IMG/VR virus record: IMGVR_UViG_3300029798_000001
Source: a virus
Taxonomy: Duplodnaviria > Caudoviricetes
Strand: one strand, 5' to 3'
Length of the DNA: 64,000 nt
Of the stretch, positions 3,001 to 30,347 are shown piece after piece. How positions within the stretch are numbered: position 1 is the first letter of the stretch; every line of letters begins with the position of its first letter. A model generated the notes under the pieces. The model was not told the DNA's origin. It did not search any database and saw nothing but the letters and a program-made list of their open reading frames with translations. Made by a program: the position numbers and the translations under genes.

Positions 3001-5060
3001 AATATACTAACAGGTGGCCTAATAAGTGCTACAGGTAATATCACTGGCAATTACATTCTTGGTAACGGTTCATTATTAACCGGTCTTAGTACTTCAAGCA
3101 TCAGCAATGGTACAAGTAATGTTAGTGTGTTTAACAACGGCAATGTAACCATTAGTGTTGCAGGCACAAGTAATGTTGGATTATTCACAACTGCTGGTGT
3201 AAACATAACTGGTGTTGTGTCTGCTACTGGTAACATCACCGGTGGGAATGTTTCAGCAACAAATTATACAGGTACTAATGTATCAGTAACTGGTATAGTA
3301 ACTGCCGCTAGTACAGTGGGCGGTGTAATTACTGGCTCAAGTGCTAGTGTAACAGGTGCAGTTACTGCCGCTAGTGTAGTTGGTGGTGTAATTACTGGCA
3401 CATCAACAAGTGTAACTGGCACACAAACAGCAGCCTCAACTGTTGGTGGTGTTATCACTGGATCAAGTGCTAGTGTCACTGGTGCAATAACTGGTGCTAG
3501 CTTGACTATTTCTGGTAACGCTAATATTGCTAGTAATACATTCTTTGTTAATTCAACTACTAACACAGCCAGCTTTGGAACTGCAACACAAACAACCAAC
3601 GCATTGGTAGCGTTTAACAGCTCAACAAGTATTTTGGTGCCAGTTGGTAACTCAACACAACGCCCTGGTACTGGTGTAACAGGTATGGTGCGCTTCAACA
3701 CTACAAATAATACGCTTGAGGTGTATAACAACAGTGCCTGGGCCAATGTTGGACAACAAACATTTACAGTTATTGCTGATGACCAGTTTGCTGGTACAGG
3801 AAGTCAAACAATATTTACACTGAGTTCTAGTCAAACAACTAATAGTTGTATTGTTAGTATTAACGGTGTAGTACAGATTCCAACTACGGCATACTCTGTA
3901 AGTGGAACAACATTAACATTTACTGAAGCTCCTGCTGTTGGTGACTTAATTGATGTTCGTGAACTTACTACAACAACATCAGTGACTAGCATTACTAATA
4001 GTTCTGGCAATGCTAGTATCTATGTAAATGACCTGTCAAGCAATGTAAGTGTCACTGGAAACATAGTTGCAAGTGGTAACATTTATGCTAATGCGTTGAT
4101 TATTATTACAACTGAAAGTATTGTAGGTAATGTAATTGGTGGTAACTTATTAACTAGCGGAACAGTCAGTGCCACTGGTAATATTACTGGCAACTATTTC
4201 TTTGGTAACGGTTCACAACTCACTGGTGTAACAGCCACAGGTATTGGTACACTTGCATCATTGAGTGTAACTGGCAACACAACCACTGGTAACTTATTAA
4301 CAGGTGGACTTGTAAGTGCCGCTGGTACTATTACTGGCACAAGCCACTTAGGTACAAGTGTATCAGTAACTGGTGCGGTAACTGCTGCCTCAGTAGTCGG
4401 TGGAGTTATTACCGGATCAAGTACAAGTGTGACTGGAACACAAACAGCAGCCTCAACTGTAGGTGGTGTGATCACTGGTACATCAACATCGGTAACTGGC
4501 AACACAACATCTGGTAACATTTTAACAGGTGGATTAATTTCTGCTACAGGAAACATTACAGGTGGTAATATTATATCAACAGGAACTAGTGGTAATATTA
4601 CTGGTGCTAATGTAATTTCTGCTACTACCTTTAGTGCCACCGGCAACACAACATCTGGTAACTTATTAACAAGTGGCCTAATTTCTGCCACAAGCACAAT
4701 CACAGGAACGAGTCATTTAGGTGCAGTTGTTTCAGTAACCGGTGCAGTGACTGCTGCATCAGTAGTAGGTGGTGTTATTACAGGCACTTCAACTTCAGTA
4801 AGCGGTGGTGTAACAGCCGCATCAGTCTCGGGCGGAGTCATTACTGGATCAAGTACAAGTGTTACTGGCACACAAACAGCCGCCAGCACAGTAGGTGGTG
4901 TTATCACTGGAAGCTCTATATCAGTATCGGGCGCAGTAACCGGCGCAAGTGTAGTCGGTGGAGTTATCACAGGCACAAGTACAAGTGTTACCGGCTCACA
5001 AACAGCCGCAAGTACAGTAGGTGGTGTCATTACCGGATCGAGCTTATCGGTAACTACAGG
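1..5060 (+). repeat. Imperfect coding tandem repeats (about 21-aa unit TAASTVGGVITGSSTSVTG(T/A)(Q/V) with optional GASASVSG spacer), in several blocks
   Basis: Dozens of copies visible in the translation; blocks at approx. 1-1170, 1850-3000, 3270-3490, 4360-4500, 4720-5060. Confidence 0.9.
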
Positions 5061-11646: not shown

Positions 11647-12417
11647 ATGGGTATCGAATCAGAAAACAGCTTAGACACACTAAAACAAGATTTATTTAAA
11701 TATGTAAGCCTTCAACTTGGCGCCCAGATCATTGATATTGAACTAGATGCCGAGCACTTTGAAGCAGCCTACAGAAATACAATTGGTACCTATCGTCAAC
11801 GGGCAGAAAACGCCTATGAAGAAAGTTACACTTTTATGGAACTGGTTACCAATGTTAACATCTATACATTGCCCCAGGAAGTACAATCAGTCCGCCAAAT
11901 TTTCCGTAGAACATTCGGAGATTCAACCGGCCCGTTCGCAAGTAATTTTGACCCATTTAGTCAGGCCAGTTTAAATGTTTATCTAATGAATTTTAATGTG
12001 GCAGGTGGCCTTGCCACATACGATTTCTATAGTCAATATGTAGAATTAGCCGGTCGTATGTTTGGTGCCTATATGGTTTATACATTTAACCCAACCACCA
12101 AAAAACTACAACTAATGCGTGATCCAAAAGGTACAGGCGAAAGCGTGTTACTTTGGACCTACAATTACAAACCAGAATTCAATTTACTAAGCGATCCGCA
12201 GATTACACAATGGATCCGTAATTATATGGTCGGCAACTGTAAACTTATAATCGGCGAAGCTCGTGAAAAATTTGCTAGTATCGCCGGCCCAAATAGCGGC
12301 ACAACCCTGAACGGTACAGCAATGAAGGCCGAAGGCCTGGCCATTATGCAACAGGGTATCGAAGACCTCAAAAACTATGTTGATAATTCACAACCTTTAA
12401 CTTGGGTTATTGGATAA
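11647..12417 (+). CDS. Neck protein, T4 gp13-like
   Basis: LKQDLFKYV.LQLGAQIIDIELD, CKLIIGEAREKF..I.GP..G.TLNG. Confidence 0.8.
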   Translation: MGIESENSLDTLKQDLFKYVSLQLGAQIIDIELDAEHFEAAYRNTIGTYRQRAENAYEESYTFMELVTNVNIYTLPQEVQSVRQIFRRTFGDSTGPFASNFDPFSQASLNVYLMNFNVAGGLATYDFYSQYVELAGRMFGAYMVYTFNPTTKKLQLMRDPKGTGESVLLWTYNYKPEFNLLSDPQITQWIRNYMVGNCKLIIGEAREKFASIAGPNSGTTLNGTAMKAEGLAIMQQGIEDLKNYVDNSQPLTWVIG

Positions 12418-25790: not shown

Positions 25791-26174
25791 ATGCGGGCTC
25801 GAGAGTTTATTGCCGAAGAAAAAGAAGGCAAGCTACATCCTGAGCAAGAAGCAGTAATGCCAACGGCTCGTCGCGTTCGAGACAACGGCGGTTACGATCG
25901 CACCAACCATTTAAATCGCATGATGATGGCACTTGCCTGTCATGACGGTAAAGATAAAAAAGCTATCCCCAAAGACAAAATGGATCCCAACAGCTGGGTT
26001 GAAAAATATAACACAGCTCATCCATACACCAAAGAAGAAGATAATATGGTAGTAGGCGCAATGAAAACTCTGGGCGCAGACCATCATCATGTTGTTTCAG
26101 ACCATCGTAGTCGAGAACCAGAAGGCACACATAAAGTTAGCCCAGTCAAGGCATTCAAAGGCTACGGCAGATGA
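25791..26174 (+). CDS. Internal-protein-like paralogue 1
   Basis: MRAREFIAE ... SPVKAFKGYGR. Confidence 0.8.
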   Translation: MRAREFIAEEKEGKLHPEQEAVMPTARRVRDNGGYDRTNHLNRMMMALACHDGKDKKAIPKDKMDPNSWVEKYNTAHPYTKEEDNMVVGAMKTLGADHHHVVSDHRSREPEGTHKVSPVKAFKGYGR

Positions 26175-26527
26175 GAGCTCGCGAATTTGTCACAGAATCT
26201 AATTTTAATAAAGACCATCAGGCAGCAATTCCAGGTGCAGAAAAGTACATGGATTTAGATAACTCTAATCCATATCACATGTGGCGATATATGGTAGCAG
26301 TAGGCGCCCGTGATGGTAAAGGCAACGGACATAAATTACCACTTGAAGGCCCAACAGGGCAAAAATTAACAACCGTGGCCTACAGCAAAGAAGACGAAAA
26401 CATACTGCATGACACAGCTAAAATGCTTGGATTTAAACCTACAAGGATGAGCAACCGTGATTCTGTAGAGCCAGATGACATCCATCGCGTTAGTCCAGTA
26501 AAAGGGTTTAAAGGATATGGCCGATGA
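26171..26527 (+). CDS. Internal-protein-like paralogue 2
   Basis: MRAREFVTE ... SPVKGFKGYGR. Confidence 0.8.
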   Translation: MRAREFVTESNFNKDHQAAIPGAEKYMDLDNSNPYHMWRYMVAVGARDGKGNGHKLPLEGPTGQKLTTVAYSKEDENILHDTAKMLGFKPTRMSNRDSVEPDDIHRVSPVKGFKGYGR

Positions 26528-26877
26528 GAGCTCGAGAATTTATTGTTGAAGATGCTAACGAAACACTTACACCAGATGAACAGACTGCTATTCCAGATAT
26601 GGAAAAGTTTGACGGTTTAGATAATAGTAATCCTTACATGATGTGGCGTTTTATGGTGGCCGCTGCCGGGGAACCCGAATTTAAAATGGCAAGACAAGGT
26701 CCAACTGGACAAAAATTTGTTACAGTAGCATATACACAAGCAGATGCTGATATTATAAATGCCACTGCTAAAACATTGGGAGTGAAAGGTACACACATCA
26801 CTACTAAAAATTCTTCCGAAGCACCAGATACTAATATAACTAGTCCAGTAAACGGATTTAAGGGTTATCCAAGGTAA
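26524..26877 (+). CDS. Internal-protein-like paralogue 3
   Basis: MRAREFIVE ... SPVNGFKGYPR. Confidence 0.8.
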   Translation: MRAREFIVEDANETLTPDEQTAIPDMEKFDGLDNSNPYMMWRFMVAAAGEPEFKMARQGPTGQKFVTVAYTQADADIINATAKTLGVKGTHITTKNSSEAPDTNITSPVNGFKGYPR

Positions 26878-26963
26878 TGGCAAATCCACCCCCACCATAT
26901 AGCGACATTACCGGCATAAGCCGCACGAATTTAATAACTAAATAAAAGATCAAAGGAGCTATA

Positions 26964-27683
26964 ATGAAAAAATTACTACTATTAACAATATTTGGTTTAT
27001 TGCCAATTTTTGCTCACGCACAAATTAATAAAATGTGCCCCCAATTTACGGCGAACGGCACACCACAGTATCAGGCACAACCAGGCGATCAAGAAATTTG
27101 CCATATGAACTACGCTGTGATTCACCGTTGTTCAGTTAAGGCTCCGGTAGCAGTATTTGAGCACTTGACTGTAGCCGCAATGACTGGCCCAGCCAAGCGT
27201 AAAGACAACTTCCACCCAGACGCAAGTGTTACACCTAACTGCTCTGCTAGTCTAGCTGACTATGCTATTGTTGGTAAAACACATGATCGCGGACACATGG
27301 CGCCAGCAGGTAACAACACACAAAGTGATGCTATTATGTCGGAGAGTTTTAACTTGAGTAATATGGTTCCACAAGTGGCCAATAATAATAGAGGCGGGTG
27401 GCGTCTATTAGAAACAGCCGAACGCCAATGGGCAACGGCACCGGGCACAGATTTTTATATCATTAGTGGCGGCATTTACGATCAAGGGCACCCTGTTGTA
27501 GGAAATGGTCTTGGTATTCCTACTCGCCTATACAAAATCATTATTGAAAAAAATAGTCGTAAAGTTATGGCTTACTTAATGCCTAATGGCCCTATCAATC
27601 CAGCAACAGATTGGCCTAAGTATCAAACAAATATGACTACTATTGAACAAGCCACTGGGATGAAATTTAACTTAGGGCAATAA
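26964..27683 (+). CDS. DNA/RNA non-specific endonuclease (NucA/EndoG family) with signal peptide
   Basis: DRGHMAPAG, SF.LSNMVPQ..NNRGGW..LE; N-terminal MKKLLLLTIFGLLPIFAHA; CTAAATA and AGGAG upstream. Confidence 0.92.
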   Translation: MKKLLLLTIFGLLPIFAHAQINKMCPQFTANGTPQYQAQPGDQEICHMNYAVIHRCSVKAPVAVFEHLTVAAMTGPAKRKDNFHPDASVTPNCSASLADYAIVGKTHDRGHMAPAGNNTQSDAIMSESFNLSNMVPQVANNNRGGWRLLETAERQWATAPGTDFYIISGGIYDQGHPVVGNGLGIPTRLYKIIIEKNSRKVMAYLMPNGPINPATDWPKYQTNMTTIEQATGMKFNLGQ

Positions 27684-28451
27684 TTAAGTTTTAGATTTAC
27701 AGTTGTTAAAGTGCCAGCGTTTCGCATTACTTGCGTCGCTGGCTTTTTTACAATGCGGACAAACTAACAGTTCTCTTTTCTTCTTATGAGGCCCTGTTGG
27801 TTGTCTCATTTTAGCAAGAGATTCTTCTGTATGTTGTTTATTTTTGAAAGTTCCCGGTTTACCGTATCTTGGATTTTTTTCTCCGGCTAATTTTCCTTTT
27901 TGTTTAGCACGGATCTCATTGGCTTTTTCTAGTCCATACAATTCCTCATACGATACTCCGATCCTGTCACTACTATATGGTAATTTTTTAGGCTTTTCTT
28001 TTTTTGGTTTTGTTGACAATTTTTGTTTAAAAGATTTTTTGAATTTTGCTATTTTTTCCGCAGCCTTTTCCGCTCCATATAGTTCTTCATAAGTCTTGCC
28101 TTTGTTTAGAGAAGGCTTGCCTTTTAATCGCTCACTACTTGCCCGCCTCATCTCATCAGTCCATACCACACCGGTATTACCGCCACTTCCGGTTTCTTCA
28201 GTTAAATTGGCCCACTCGTTACTTGCGACTACATTCCATAGCCGACTATAATATTGTCCCCACTCGGCTACATCTTTATTATTTTTACACTCTTTCAATA
28301 TTTCTGTATCATAATCGTATCCGTGCTTTTCTAAATGAGAGCGCCAATAAGTTCCTGATCCTGGATAGGTATGCGGATTTTGTGCCGAGGTCTTGCCAAG
28401 ATATTTTAATCCAGTTATTCTATGAGTCTTTTTATATAGATAAATTTTCAT
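27684..28451 (-). mobile_element. Free-standing GIY-YIG homing endonuclease gene with NUMOD3-like repeats
   Basis: IYLYKK.H..TGLKYLGKT..YPGSG; NLTEETGSGG; KGKTYEELYG.EKA repeated; HTEESLAKM. Confidence 0.88.
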
Positions 28452-28467
28452 ACAAGTATTTAGTCTA

Positions 28468-28758
28468 AATCGTGGTATCTGGAAACAGTTAGAAACCTGG
28501 GAACGCTATTGGGTACTGAAAGGTGGCGACTATTACATTATTTCCGGTGGTATCTTTGATCAAGGACATCCTGTAATTGGCAACGGCCTCGGTATTCCAA
28601 CTCGTTTATACAAGATCATTATTGAAAAGAACAGCAAAAAAGTTCAAGCATATTTAATGCCTAACGCGGCATTGCCAGTCCAAGATTTACCCAAGTATCA
28701 AGTACCAATGGCGGCTGTTGAGCAAGCAACTGGCATGCGATTTAATTTAGGGCCTTAA
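28468..28758 (+). pseudogene. Orphaned 3' half of a second allele of the non-specific endonuclease (no start codon)
   Basis: Translates as NRGIWKQLETWERYW..YYIISGGIFDQGHPVIGNGLGIPTRLYKIIIEKNSKKVQAYLMPN..EQATGMRFNLGP*, matching the C-terminus of 26964..27683. Confidence 0.92.
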
Positions 28759-28781
28759 TCAAAATCGCCATAAATTAATAT

Positions 28782-30347
28782 ATGGCAAAGACTGAAGACA
28801 CTCTAGTAAAAGCACCCTATAGAGATACGCCCTTTACTGACTATCAACTTGAAGAGTTTGTAAAATGTGCCGATCCAGATCACGGACCTGAATATTTTAT
28901 GAGTAATTATTTCTATATACAGCATCCTGTTAGGGGTAAGATGCTGTATCGCCCATACGATTATCAAAAACGCTTAATTGACACTTATCATAATCATCGA
29001 TTTAGTATATCGATGATGCCGAGACAAACAGGTAAATCAACCAGTGCCGCCGGTTACTTGTTATGGTATGCTATGTTTATTCCAGATAGTACTATTCTAG
29101 TGGCTGCACACAAGCATCTAGGATCTCAAGAAATTATGGCCCGTATTCGATATGCCTATGAACTATGTCCTGACTATATCCGAGCAGGTGCTACCAGTTA
29201 TAACAAACTTAGTCTAGATTTTGAAAATGGAAGTCGCATACAATCGGCAACTACCACAGAAAATACCGGTCGCGGTATGTCTTTATCATTATTATATGCC
29301 GACGAGTTTGCATTTGTGCGTCCCGGAGTAGCCAAAGAATTTTGGACCTCTATTAGCCCAACACTAGCAACTGGTGGTAAATGTATTATTACCTCAACTC
29401 CAAACAGTGACGAAGATCAATTTGCATTACTGTGGAAAGGTGCCAACAAGCGTGAAGATGCATTTGGTAATCCAACCGCAGTGGGCATCAACGGATTTAA
29501 ACCCTTCCGCAGTTATTGGAATGAACACCCTGATCGAGATGAAAAATGGGCCGCAGATTCGCAAGCACAACTGGGCGAGGATCGCTTTAGGAGAGAAATG
29601 TGCTGTGAATTTCTTATAAATGATGAGACCTTGATTGCCCCGGCTAAATTACTTGATTTATCTGGACATGAGCCATTGTATAGAACTGGTCAAGTACGCT
29701 GGTATCAAAAGCCTCGGGTGGATAGAACTTATGTAATCTCATTAGATCCTAGTCTGGGTACCGGCGGTGATCCTGCAGCCATACAAATTTTTGAAGCAAA
29801 TACTACAGAACAAATCGGCGAATGGCGGCACAACCGTACGCCTATTCCGGAACAAATTAGAATTTTAGCTGATATTTGCCGACATATTAATGAAACGGTT
29901 CAAGCGCCCAACAACATTTATTATAGCGTTGAAAATAACACCATTGGCGAAGCTGCCTTGATTAGTATCGCAGAATACGGAGAAGAAAATATACAAGGCT
30001 ATTTTCTTAGCGAGCCAGCCAATGGCAATGGTCGTAGATATCGCAAAGGATTTAACACTACAAACAAGCACAAATTGTCCGCTTGTAACAAAATGAAATC
30101 TCTTATAGAAACGGGTAAAATGAAAATACGCAGCTCGTCTCTAGTTTCAGAGCTTAAAACCTTTGTCGCCAGCGGCGTTAGTTATGCGGCAAAACCCGGT
30201 GAAACTGACGATTTAGTCATGGCCACGGTTTTAAATATCCGTATGTTACAGCTATTACAAACCTATAACAACGAAATTGACAATCAACTTAGAGACCATG
30301 GCGATAATATAATTGCACCGATGCCGTTCATCTCTTCATTACGATAA
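28782..30347 (+). CDS. Terminase large subunit, gp17-like
   Basis: PRQTGKST Walker A, LLYADEFAFV, ITSTPN, LDPSLGTGGD, DDLVMA. Confidence 0.95.
   Translation: MAKTEDTLVKAPYRDTPFTDYQLEEFVKCADPDHGPEYFMSNYFYIQHPVRGKMLYRPYDYQKRLIDTYHNHRFSISMMPRQTGKSTSAAGYLLWYAMFIPDSTILVAAHKHLGSQEIMARIRYAYELCPDYIRAGATSYNKLSLDFENGSRIQSATTTENTGRGMSLSLLYADEFAFVRPGVAKEFWTSISPTLATGGKCIITSTPNSDEDQFALLWKGANKREDAFGNPTAVGINGFKPFRSYWNEHPDRDEKWAADSQAQLGEDRFRREMCCEFLINDETLIAPAKLLDLSGHEPLYRTGQVRWYQKPRVDRTYVISLDPSLGTGGDPAAIQIFEANTTEQIGEWRHNRTPIPEQIRILADICRHINETVQAPNNIYYSVENNTIGEAALISIAEYGEENIQGYFLSEPANGNGRRYRKGFNTTNKHKLSACNKMKSLIETGKMKIRSSSLVSELKTFVASGVSYAAKPGETDDLVMATVLNIRMLQLLQTYNNEIDNQLRDHGDNIIAPMPFISSLR

Follow-up and report, generated by a model that had tools for sequence, protein, structure and literature searches.

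The locus described here raises the question of how a mobile endonuclease gene can come to stand at the active-site codons of another gene without an intron or an intein. It lies in IMG/VR virus record IMGVR_UViG_3300029798_000001, of which a stretch of 64,000 nucleotides (nt), termed the window, was analysed; all coordinates are positions in this 64-kb window. The phage is a freshwater, jumbo-type one. The product of its gene for the terminase large subunit (terL) shares only 52% identity with its counterpart in Pseudomonas phage PA5oct, the nearest isolates are only distant jumbo phages, and positions 26400-29400 gave no megablast match among 50,697 phage records. Three features precede terL: a gene for a secreted non-specific nuclease, a homing endonuclease gene (HEG) of the GIY-YIG class on the opposite strand, and a second, start-less copy of the 3' end of the nuclease gene, called the orphan below. 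Comparison with related loci indicates that the HEG element probably sits, in effect, inside the nuclease gene at its Asn-Arg-Gly codons and supplies its own version of the gene's 3' half.

The two copies of the nuclease gene end

The nuclease belongs to the Endonuclease_NS (beta-beta-alpha-Me) enzymes by its PF01223 domain, its DRGH motif and the Asn and Glu of its metal site, and it aligns with the structures of EXOG, EndoG, NucA and Serratia nuclease through RGHMAPAGNN and LSNxVPQ..NN.G.W..E. The Asn of the NRG codons is presumably N119 of the Serratia enzyme. The orphan, which reads NRGIWKQLETWERYW...MRFNLGP and a stop in the frame 28468-28758, matches positions 116-217 of the PF01223 profile (E=2.2e-14) and is 70% identical in protein to the intact gene's final 98 codons (BLASTP E=1e-50); in DNA the two copies agree at 67.6% (202/299 columns). 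No in-frame start follows the stop at 28441-28443, the earliest in-frame ATG being at 28657. Similarity between the copies ends abruptly, with 18/48 matches upstream of NRG and 11/40 past the stops. The two junctions occupy one and the same stretch of ~11 nt in the gene (AAT-AGA-GG at 27387-27394; AAT-CGT-GG at 28468-28475), and the net change relative to an uninterrupted gene is a precise 1081-nt insertion at a single point. The HEG is convergent with the nuclease gene, the two stop codons adjoining with zero spacer, and 23 nt separate the end of the orphan from the start of terL.

Much of this layout had been read from the letters alone in an earlier note on this DNA. Its claim that the C-terminal ~97 codons of the nuclease are present twice, the second time without a start, is borne out. 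The antisense GIY-YIG gene does lie between the copies, though without filling the gap exactly, 16 nt (28452-28467) being left over. Divergence is indeed greatest at NRG, where DNA identity is 50-63% over the first ~75 nt; the description of the copies as near-identical further on holds for ~40 protein residues only and not for the DNA, in which identity peaks at 80-87% at ~27507-27550 and then drops to 57-67%.

Alleles of related phages indicate which copy is the original one. Scans of IMG/VR and of Joint Genome Institute (JGI) metagenomes yielded 78 nuclease loci and 137 loci (61+76) with relatives of the HEG. At no fewer than 17 distinct loci (a lower bound) the nuclease gene is uninterrupted, with small paralogues upstream, terL downstream and no HEG; in L006, L017, L027, L032, L056-58 and L071 only ~25-70 nt separate the nuclease stop from terL. 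Nearly all alleles, even those ~50% identical overall, read SNMVPQVANN/NRGIWKQLE across the junction (type B), and the junction DNA of this type matches the first bases of the orphan. A minority reads NRG(G/A)WRLLE (type A), and the end now attached to the gene in the window is of this kind, NRGGWRLLE. Diagnostic bases, which set type A apart from type B, are concentrated at 27396-27418, right after the junction, with a second patch at 27591-27613. The 3' half of HEG-less relatives is up to 90.6% identical in amino acids to the orphan (L006, L015) as against ~78% to the attached end, and alignments of the orphan with L006 and L017 continue unbroken into terL.

The 5' part of the intact gene, by comparison, is nearest to HEG-less type-B alleles, L017 being 91% identical in nucleotides overall. 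Identity to L017 is 97-100% over 150 nt of the 5' half (alignment columns 150-300) and 65% past the junction; identity to L011, a type-A allele, runs the other way, from ~75% before the junction to as much as 93-98% after it, with 88-94% over 27448-27690. The window follows L017-type sequence to ...AATAATAATAGAGG and then type A, CGGGTGGCGT. Informative sites favour L017 over L011 by 71:16 before the junction and by 11:74 after it (Fisher p=9e-21), and together with sliding identity they place the switch point between 27384 and 27394.

Separate trees of the two halves disagree. In the 5'-half tree the window groups with the HEG-less L017 and L006, and type A is scattered, needing 6 changes. 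In the 3'-half tree type A forms one clade (99/97 support) that includes the attached end, itself sister to L011, L004 and L013 (97/95), whereas the orphan falls outside type A with the HEG-less L006, L015 and L017. An approximately unbiased (AU) test rejects the attached end and the orphan as sisters (p=7e-5). Taken together, the comparison of more than 150 related loci supports the chimeric gene and displaced original end that the earlier note had proposed: relatives with an uninterrupted allele carry a 3' half of orphan type (NRGIWKQLE), with terL directly after the nuclease. By these sequence comparisons the intact nuclease gene is supported as chimeric, its 5' part being native and its 3' end foreign and HEG-linked, and the orphan as the gene's native end, still in its ancestral place directly before terL. 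The features are collected in Table 1.

Table 1. Positions of the nuclease gene, its two 3' ends, the endonuclease gene and terL in the window
Feature	Position	Strand	Remarks
Nuclease gene, 239 amino acids (aa)	26964-27683	+	Pfam PF01223 (Endonuclease_NS), E=6.7e-39, whole gene
Native 5' part of nuclease gene	26964..27386	+	HDRGHMAP motif, SNMVPQVANN, N-terminus resembling a signal peptide
Left recombination junction, type B to type A	27384..27394	+	At the Asn-Arg-Gly codons
Foreign type-A 3' half of nuclease gene	27387..27683	+	NRGGWRLLETAER...MKFNLGQ and stop
GIY-YIG HEG, free-standing, Seg-like, 255 aa	27684..28451	-	
Promoter-like CTAAATA	28455..28461	-	12 nt upstream of HEG ATG
Right junction	28452..28478	+	16 nt of HEG 5' flank ACAAGTATTTAGTCTA, then the orphan's first bases AATCGTGGTAT
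Orphan, start-less displaced native 3' half	28468..28758	+	Type B, NRGIWKQLE...
terL, terminase large subunit	28782..30347	+	Pfam Terminase_6N and Terminase_6C

The surroundings of the gene are themselves variable. Three tandem paralogous small genes (MRAREF...FKGY.R) lie upstream at 25791-26877, and relatives keep 2-3 of them. In many relatives (L015:5972-7220; also L022, L011 and L013) a 377-aa radical-SAM/SPASM-like gene stands between nuclease and terL. In L015 it is flanked by a ~45-nt direct repeat that includes the nuclease's last ~15 nt, spacer and ATG; the hot spot has thus seen another gene-end duplication, of smaller size. The terL gene of the window is uninterrupted, unlike that of four relatives (L013:8525-11061, L018:6803-10691, L029:8630-11288, L032:6752-9546), which is split into 2-3 pieces by inserts of ~1 kb (introns, inteins or HEGs).

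The endonuclease and its linkage with type-A ends

The HEG product consists of a catalytic domain at the N-terminus, NUMOD3 linker repeats and, at the C-terminus, a zinc-finger-like motif, CPHC...KRWHFNNCK, of which C231, P232, C234, R245, H247 and C251 are invariant in the family. It matches PHROG 314 'homing endonuclease' (E=2e-13) and NUMOD3 (E=1.7e-4), the latter found in 10 of the 15 family members; Pfam GIY-YIG is matched by 4 of the 15 and SegE_GIY-YIG by 2. A phmmer search of the PDB with the window HEG alone gave no match, and only the profile of the 15 members reached the catalytic domain of I-TevI, the T4 td intron endonuclease (1LN0/1MK0, E=3.7e-4). In an AlphaFold model residues 1-90 have a pLDDT of about 90 and the order beta-beta-alpha-beta-alpha, and the top Foldseek matches of the model are again 1MK0 and 1LN0 (prob 1.0, target TM 0.66). 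Y6, Y18 and N82 align with Y6, Y17 and N90 of I-TevI (family alignment A3). The protein is thus predicted, from sequence and model, to join a GIY-YIG fold to a separate DNA-binding module. It resembles I-TevI (1MK0, 1LN0) in its fold, its linker and the separateness of its DNA-binding modules, and differs from that intron-encoded enzyme in being only ~17% identical and in ending with NUMOD3 and a CxxC...C/H zinc finger, not a helix-turn-helix. Because dN/dS (the ratio of nonsynonymous to synonymous divergence) is 0.06-0.14 against L003, L080 and L026, the coding sequence is evidently under purifying selection.

The sequence TAAATA occurs within 40 nt upstream of 11/59 plus-strand gene starts, compared with 2% of random 40-nt windows (p=2e-8). 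It appears mostly as CTAAATA or ATAAATA, 11-40 nt before the start, e.g. at 11647, 19839, 23101, 26964, 41855 and 50679. It is put forward as a late-promoter candidate; the longer T4 consensus, TATAAATA, showed no enrichment in the window (4 sites vs ~8 expected). That the CTAAATA before the HEG acts as a late promoter is plausible on this basis; scans of the region for sigma-70 promoters and terminators gave nothing above shuffled background.

Beside terL the two types of nuclease end and the HEG go together: the HEG is absent at 17 distinct type-B loci and present at 6/6 distinct type-A loci, and all HEGs beside these terL-linked type-A alleles carry the same C-terminal DNA-binding module. 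The loci with type-A ends and HEGs can be grouped into three arrangements. The first, with an antisense Seg-like HEG, comprises the window and the contig L140. The second, with a sense-strand HEG of 207 aa and a classical GIY-YIG domain, comprises L011, L013 and L149-L154. The third, in another genomic context, comprises the antisense HEGs of L003, L143 and L144 (~91-92% identity) as well as those of L001 and L002, likewise antisense, with a different catalytic domain and a C-terminus 89% identical. The far side of the HEG may be terL, a radical-SAM-like gene, or a small ORF (open reading frame) plus a glycosyltransferase gene. The near side is constantly the nuclease 3' end, and because it stays constant while the far side varies, the nuclease gene is the likely target.

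The HEGs themselves show traces of domain shuffling. The NUMOD3 and zinc-finger module is 92-98% identical in nucleotides among the window (27684-27900), L003, L143 and L001, and in L001:6237-6851 and L011:6731-7354 it is joined to a different, classical GIY-YIG domain, the L011 gene lying on the other strand. In three diverged lineages (L003:4840-4930, L001:6935-7108, and L080, reverse complement, 3290-3375) a small conserved ORF (..NPxxYPVYPEDDxxDR..NPY..) flanks the HEG on its 5' side and may belong to the mobile unit. In L080:1-2800 (the same in L141 and L142) a 74%-identical HEG lies between terL and an Endonuclease_NS gene only ~33% identical to that of the window (NRSTWKLLE); there the genomic position is unchanged and the whole nuclease gene has seemingly been exchanged.

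Proposed homing and the competing explanations

As the arrangement suggests, homing would take place in a mixed infection, in which the GIY-YIG enzyme would bind and cut the common allele at about ...CCACAAGTGGCCAAYAAY/AAYCGTGGTATYTGGAAACAG... (SNMVPQVANN/NRGIWKQLE). The left end of the break would be repaired from the donor's nuclease gene, and the right end would pair with nuclease-derived sequence beyond the donor's HEG, either a full orphan or a remnant of ~16 nt as in L003. The NRGGWRLLE 3' half and the HEG would be copied in, and the recipient's own 3' half would be pushed downstream, start-less, to its place before terL. Afterwards no copy would hold a whole target, the working gene having the native left half and an altered right half, and the orphan being the native right half with HEG flank on its left. 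Since neither copy would have both halves of the site, an intact NRGIWKQLE could persist in the HEG's own genome. Cleavage and resistance are proposed because type A is associated with the HEG and because both junctions lie on the same codons; the resistance of the new end is read only from the diagnostic changes at 27396-27418.

At the right junction the 27 nt that adjoin the HEG start codon (28452..28478) are common to the window, L003 and L144, after which the sequences diverge. The last 16 of these, AATCGAGGTATTTAGA in L003 and L144, have 13/16 matches to target-type NRGIW codons. L003 most likely descends, to judge from this stretch, from an orphan-bearing ancestor and kept just the orphan's first bases. 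That AATCGAGGTATTTAGA is simply the usual 5' flank of these HEGs was considered and rejected, as L001, L026 and L080 share a different conserved flank.

The state of the orphan may be a sign of recency or of a function as homology arm or operator. A possible though doubtful alternative is that the orphan is a retained functional element, namely an obligate downstream homology arm and/or an operator for self-repression, or that a small product starts at its internal ATG, 28657. The frame is open, with no frameshift or stop and 0 departures from residues at least 90% conserved in type B, and dN/dS is 0.07-0.10; the distance from the start of the half-target is 17 nt to the HEG ATG and 6 nt to the promoter-like CTAAATA; and L003 and L144 kept exactly the first stretch and lost the rest. 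Recency would suffice to explain the open frame, however, the nearest sampled relative standing at a dS (synonymous divergence) of about 0.9, at which a short pseudogene phase is invisible, and most HEG-bearing relatives manage without an orphan. A two-role version, for which the odds are similarly low, would make the orphan a working part both as downstream homology arm and, in its first ~30 nt, as an operator repressing the HEG. In the operator role the HEG product would bind the intact right half-target without cutting and repress its own gene, by analogy with I-TevI. That enzyme reportedly also binds, over its own promoter, a copy of its site that it cannot cleave (Edgell et al. 2004), and it served as the model here. 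In the homology-arm role, a HEG without an orphan would be shut out of genomes lacking synteny beyond the nuclease gene. Such a double role would explain the retention of this stretch in L003 and L144 and, if true, would imply that in each homing event the element makes its regulatory site anew out of the host gene.

Several observations weigh against homing by gene-end replacement as set out above. The full orphan occurs in one sampled lineage only (the window, L140 and runs X1-X9); no second orphan-bearing lineage was found in the 78 nuclease and 61+76 HEG loci, the only further occurrence being L140, of the same lineage. The HEG-bearing L001, L003, L011, L013, L026 and L080 lack a full orphan, so HEGs of this family do not necessarily produce the duplication. 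In other contexts (L007, L012, L025, L068) there are type-A alleles with no HEG beside them. The attached 3' half is nearest to L011 (dS 0.43) and the HEG to L003 (dS 0.69), with a sharp breakpoint at 27684-27698, at the convergent stops, from where (27698) the HEG is 92-98% identical to L003, L143 and L001. Either the cassette would be a mosaic from several exchanges or its donor is unsampled, and as no sampled donor has both parts, the 3' half and the HEG need not have been transferred jointly in one step. Run X10, from a fourth study, has the chimeric nuclease allele (98% identical over 27273-27815) followed by a different HEG arrangement, so the left junction may predate the event that made the orphan. 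On the X10 contig 27687 is joined to the opposite strand at 27815, leading into another HEG arrangement or an inversion. Placing the 5' half alone with L011, L013 and L004 is not rejected by the AU test (p=0.09). The canonical catalytic glutamate of the HEG is ambiguous: the column of I-TevI E75 is Gly in the window subfamily, a Glu (E61) lies two positions earlier, and the Arg lies in an unaligned region. Finally, cleavage, the cut position, the resistance of type A, the repair route and the number of events, one or several, are all inferred.

Some of these points would also be expected if HEG-independent mosaicism between co-infecting phages had built the locus, by homologous exchange in the 5' half of the nuclease gene and illegitimate exchange at short microhomology beyond the HEG, the HEG being a passenger whose real target is elsewhere or gone. 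Mosaicism runs through all the nuclease genes of this phage group, and the differing nearest relatives of attached half and HEG, the type-A alleles without HEG and the restriction of the orphan to one lineage would all fit. Against mosaicism alone speaks that, in a gene of 720 nt, the two junctions share one stretch of ~11 nt, exactly at the type-A diagnostic changes, that type A and HEG are perfectly associated beside terL, and that the nuclease 3' end is always on the near side of the HEG, whatever lies on the far side. It is accordingly held to be unlikely.

In-situ tandem duplication of the 3' half, with later insertion of the HEG and divergence, would account for two copies in the same orientation ~1.1 kb apart, and is very improbable given the rejection of the copies as sisters by the AU test (p=7e-5) and given that the attached end is 89% identical in nucleotides to L011 and the orphan 83% to L015 while the two are mutually just 67.6% identical.

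Independent assemblies bear on the last alternative. Over 3900 nt, JGI metagenome contig L140 matches window 26318-30217, orphan included, with 99.74% identity. Logan contigs X4 (27365-28635), X6 (27537-28566) and X7, stemming from three different studies, show 0 differences across both HEG boundaries. Other contigs of runs X4 and X6 branch off the window at 27394 into AATTTGGAAACAAGTA, the HEG-less allele, and one Logan contig links 27382 directly to 28471; both represent uninterrupted HEG-less alleles of related phages from the same water. The HEG-less alleles thus share lake samples with the orphan-bearing phage (the habitat evidence leaves aside runs X10-X20, which have few k-mers in common with the window). 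An assembly chimera of two co-occurring strains, which the earlier note had named as a danger to its reading and which a metagenomic source with many co-occurring variants and the breaking of Logan contigs in the conserved stretches 27365-27389 and 28566-28606 might suggest, can be practically dismissed, as the single contigs X4 and X6 cross the region without a difference and the same structure, both junctions included, recurs in three studies and in L140.

Comparison with known homing systems

Intronless homing is known in T4 from SegE, SegF, SegG and Mob (Kadyrov 1997, Belle 2002, Liu 2003); these are reportedly free-standing genes of patchy distribution between phage genes, and the Seg enzymes reportedly cleave the neighbouring conserved gene in HEG-less phages and co-convert flanking markers. 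The sense-strand and L001-type HEGs beside type-A alleles (L011, L013, L001) resemble this classical, T4-Seg-like form. Classical intronless homing relies on homology on both sides and leaves no duplicated gene end, in contrast to the window with its displaced 291-nt gene end.

A closer parallel is given by the WHO elements that Torulaspora and Lachancea yeasts carry at FBA1, their aldolase gene (Coughlan et al. 2020, eLife, PMC7282813). Homing of these elements swaps the 3' end of the target for a resistant version, a mechanism proposed and partly demonstrated by these authors; cleavage was demonstrated, and the enzymes are HO-related, intein-like endonucleases acting in meiotic diploids (PMC7282813). 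As at FBA1, the endonuclease gene of the window lies just downstream of its presumed target, the gene is a chimera of recipient 5' and donor 3' parts, and the old 3' end is displaced downstream as a fragment, which in WHO is the downstream homology arm. In either system the trees of the 5' and 3' parts conflict, with a sharp rise in diversity past the cleavage position, a presumed one in the present case. The differences are that the present case concerns a phage, a Seg-like GIY-YIG enzyme, an HEG antisense to its target and one element, not a cluster; the target is a gene for a secreted non-specific nuclease, and cleavage is inferred.

Hybrid genes are also made in fungal mitochondria by mobile open reading frames (mORFs), at atp6 of Allomyces macrogynus and at atp6, atp9, cox2 and nad3 of Glomus, according to Beaudet et al. 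2013 (PMC3630166). The order described there is the same, a foreign C-terminal part followed by the endonuclease ORF (GIY-YIG in Glomus atp9) and the native C-terminus, and there too close relatives group with the native copy, the inserted one falling elsewhere. The mORFs usually share the strand of the host gene and are often in frame with it, whereas the HEG here, in a jumbo phage, is on the opposite strand with convergent stops.

A limited literature search returned no published phage case of an HEG-linked duplicated gene end. Homing that replaces a gene end, known from yeast WHO elements and from fungal mitochondrial mORFs, quite likely extends to phages with Seg-type GIY-YIG enzymes. Through replacement of this kind an HEG can enter a conserved active-site region with neither intron nor intein, and can invade genomes with which it shares no far-side synteny. 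The system is unusually testable, with HEG-plus and HEG-less alleles, several arrangements and domain-swapped HEGs in the same lakes, a putative target defined to about 30 nt and an unusually complete natural series of alleles. Start-less orphans escape gene callers, and chimeric genes such as this one will mislead single-gene phylogenies of phages.

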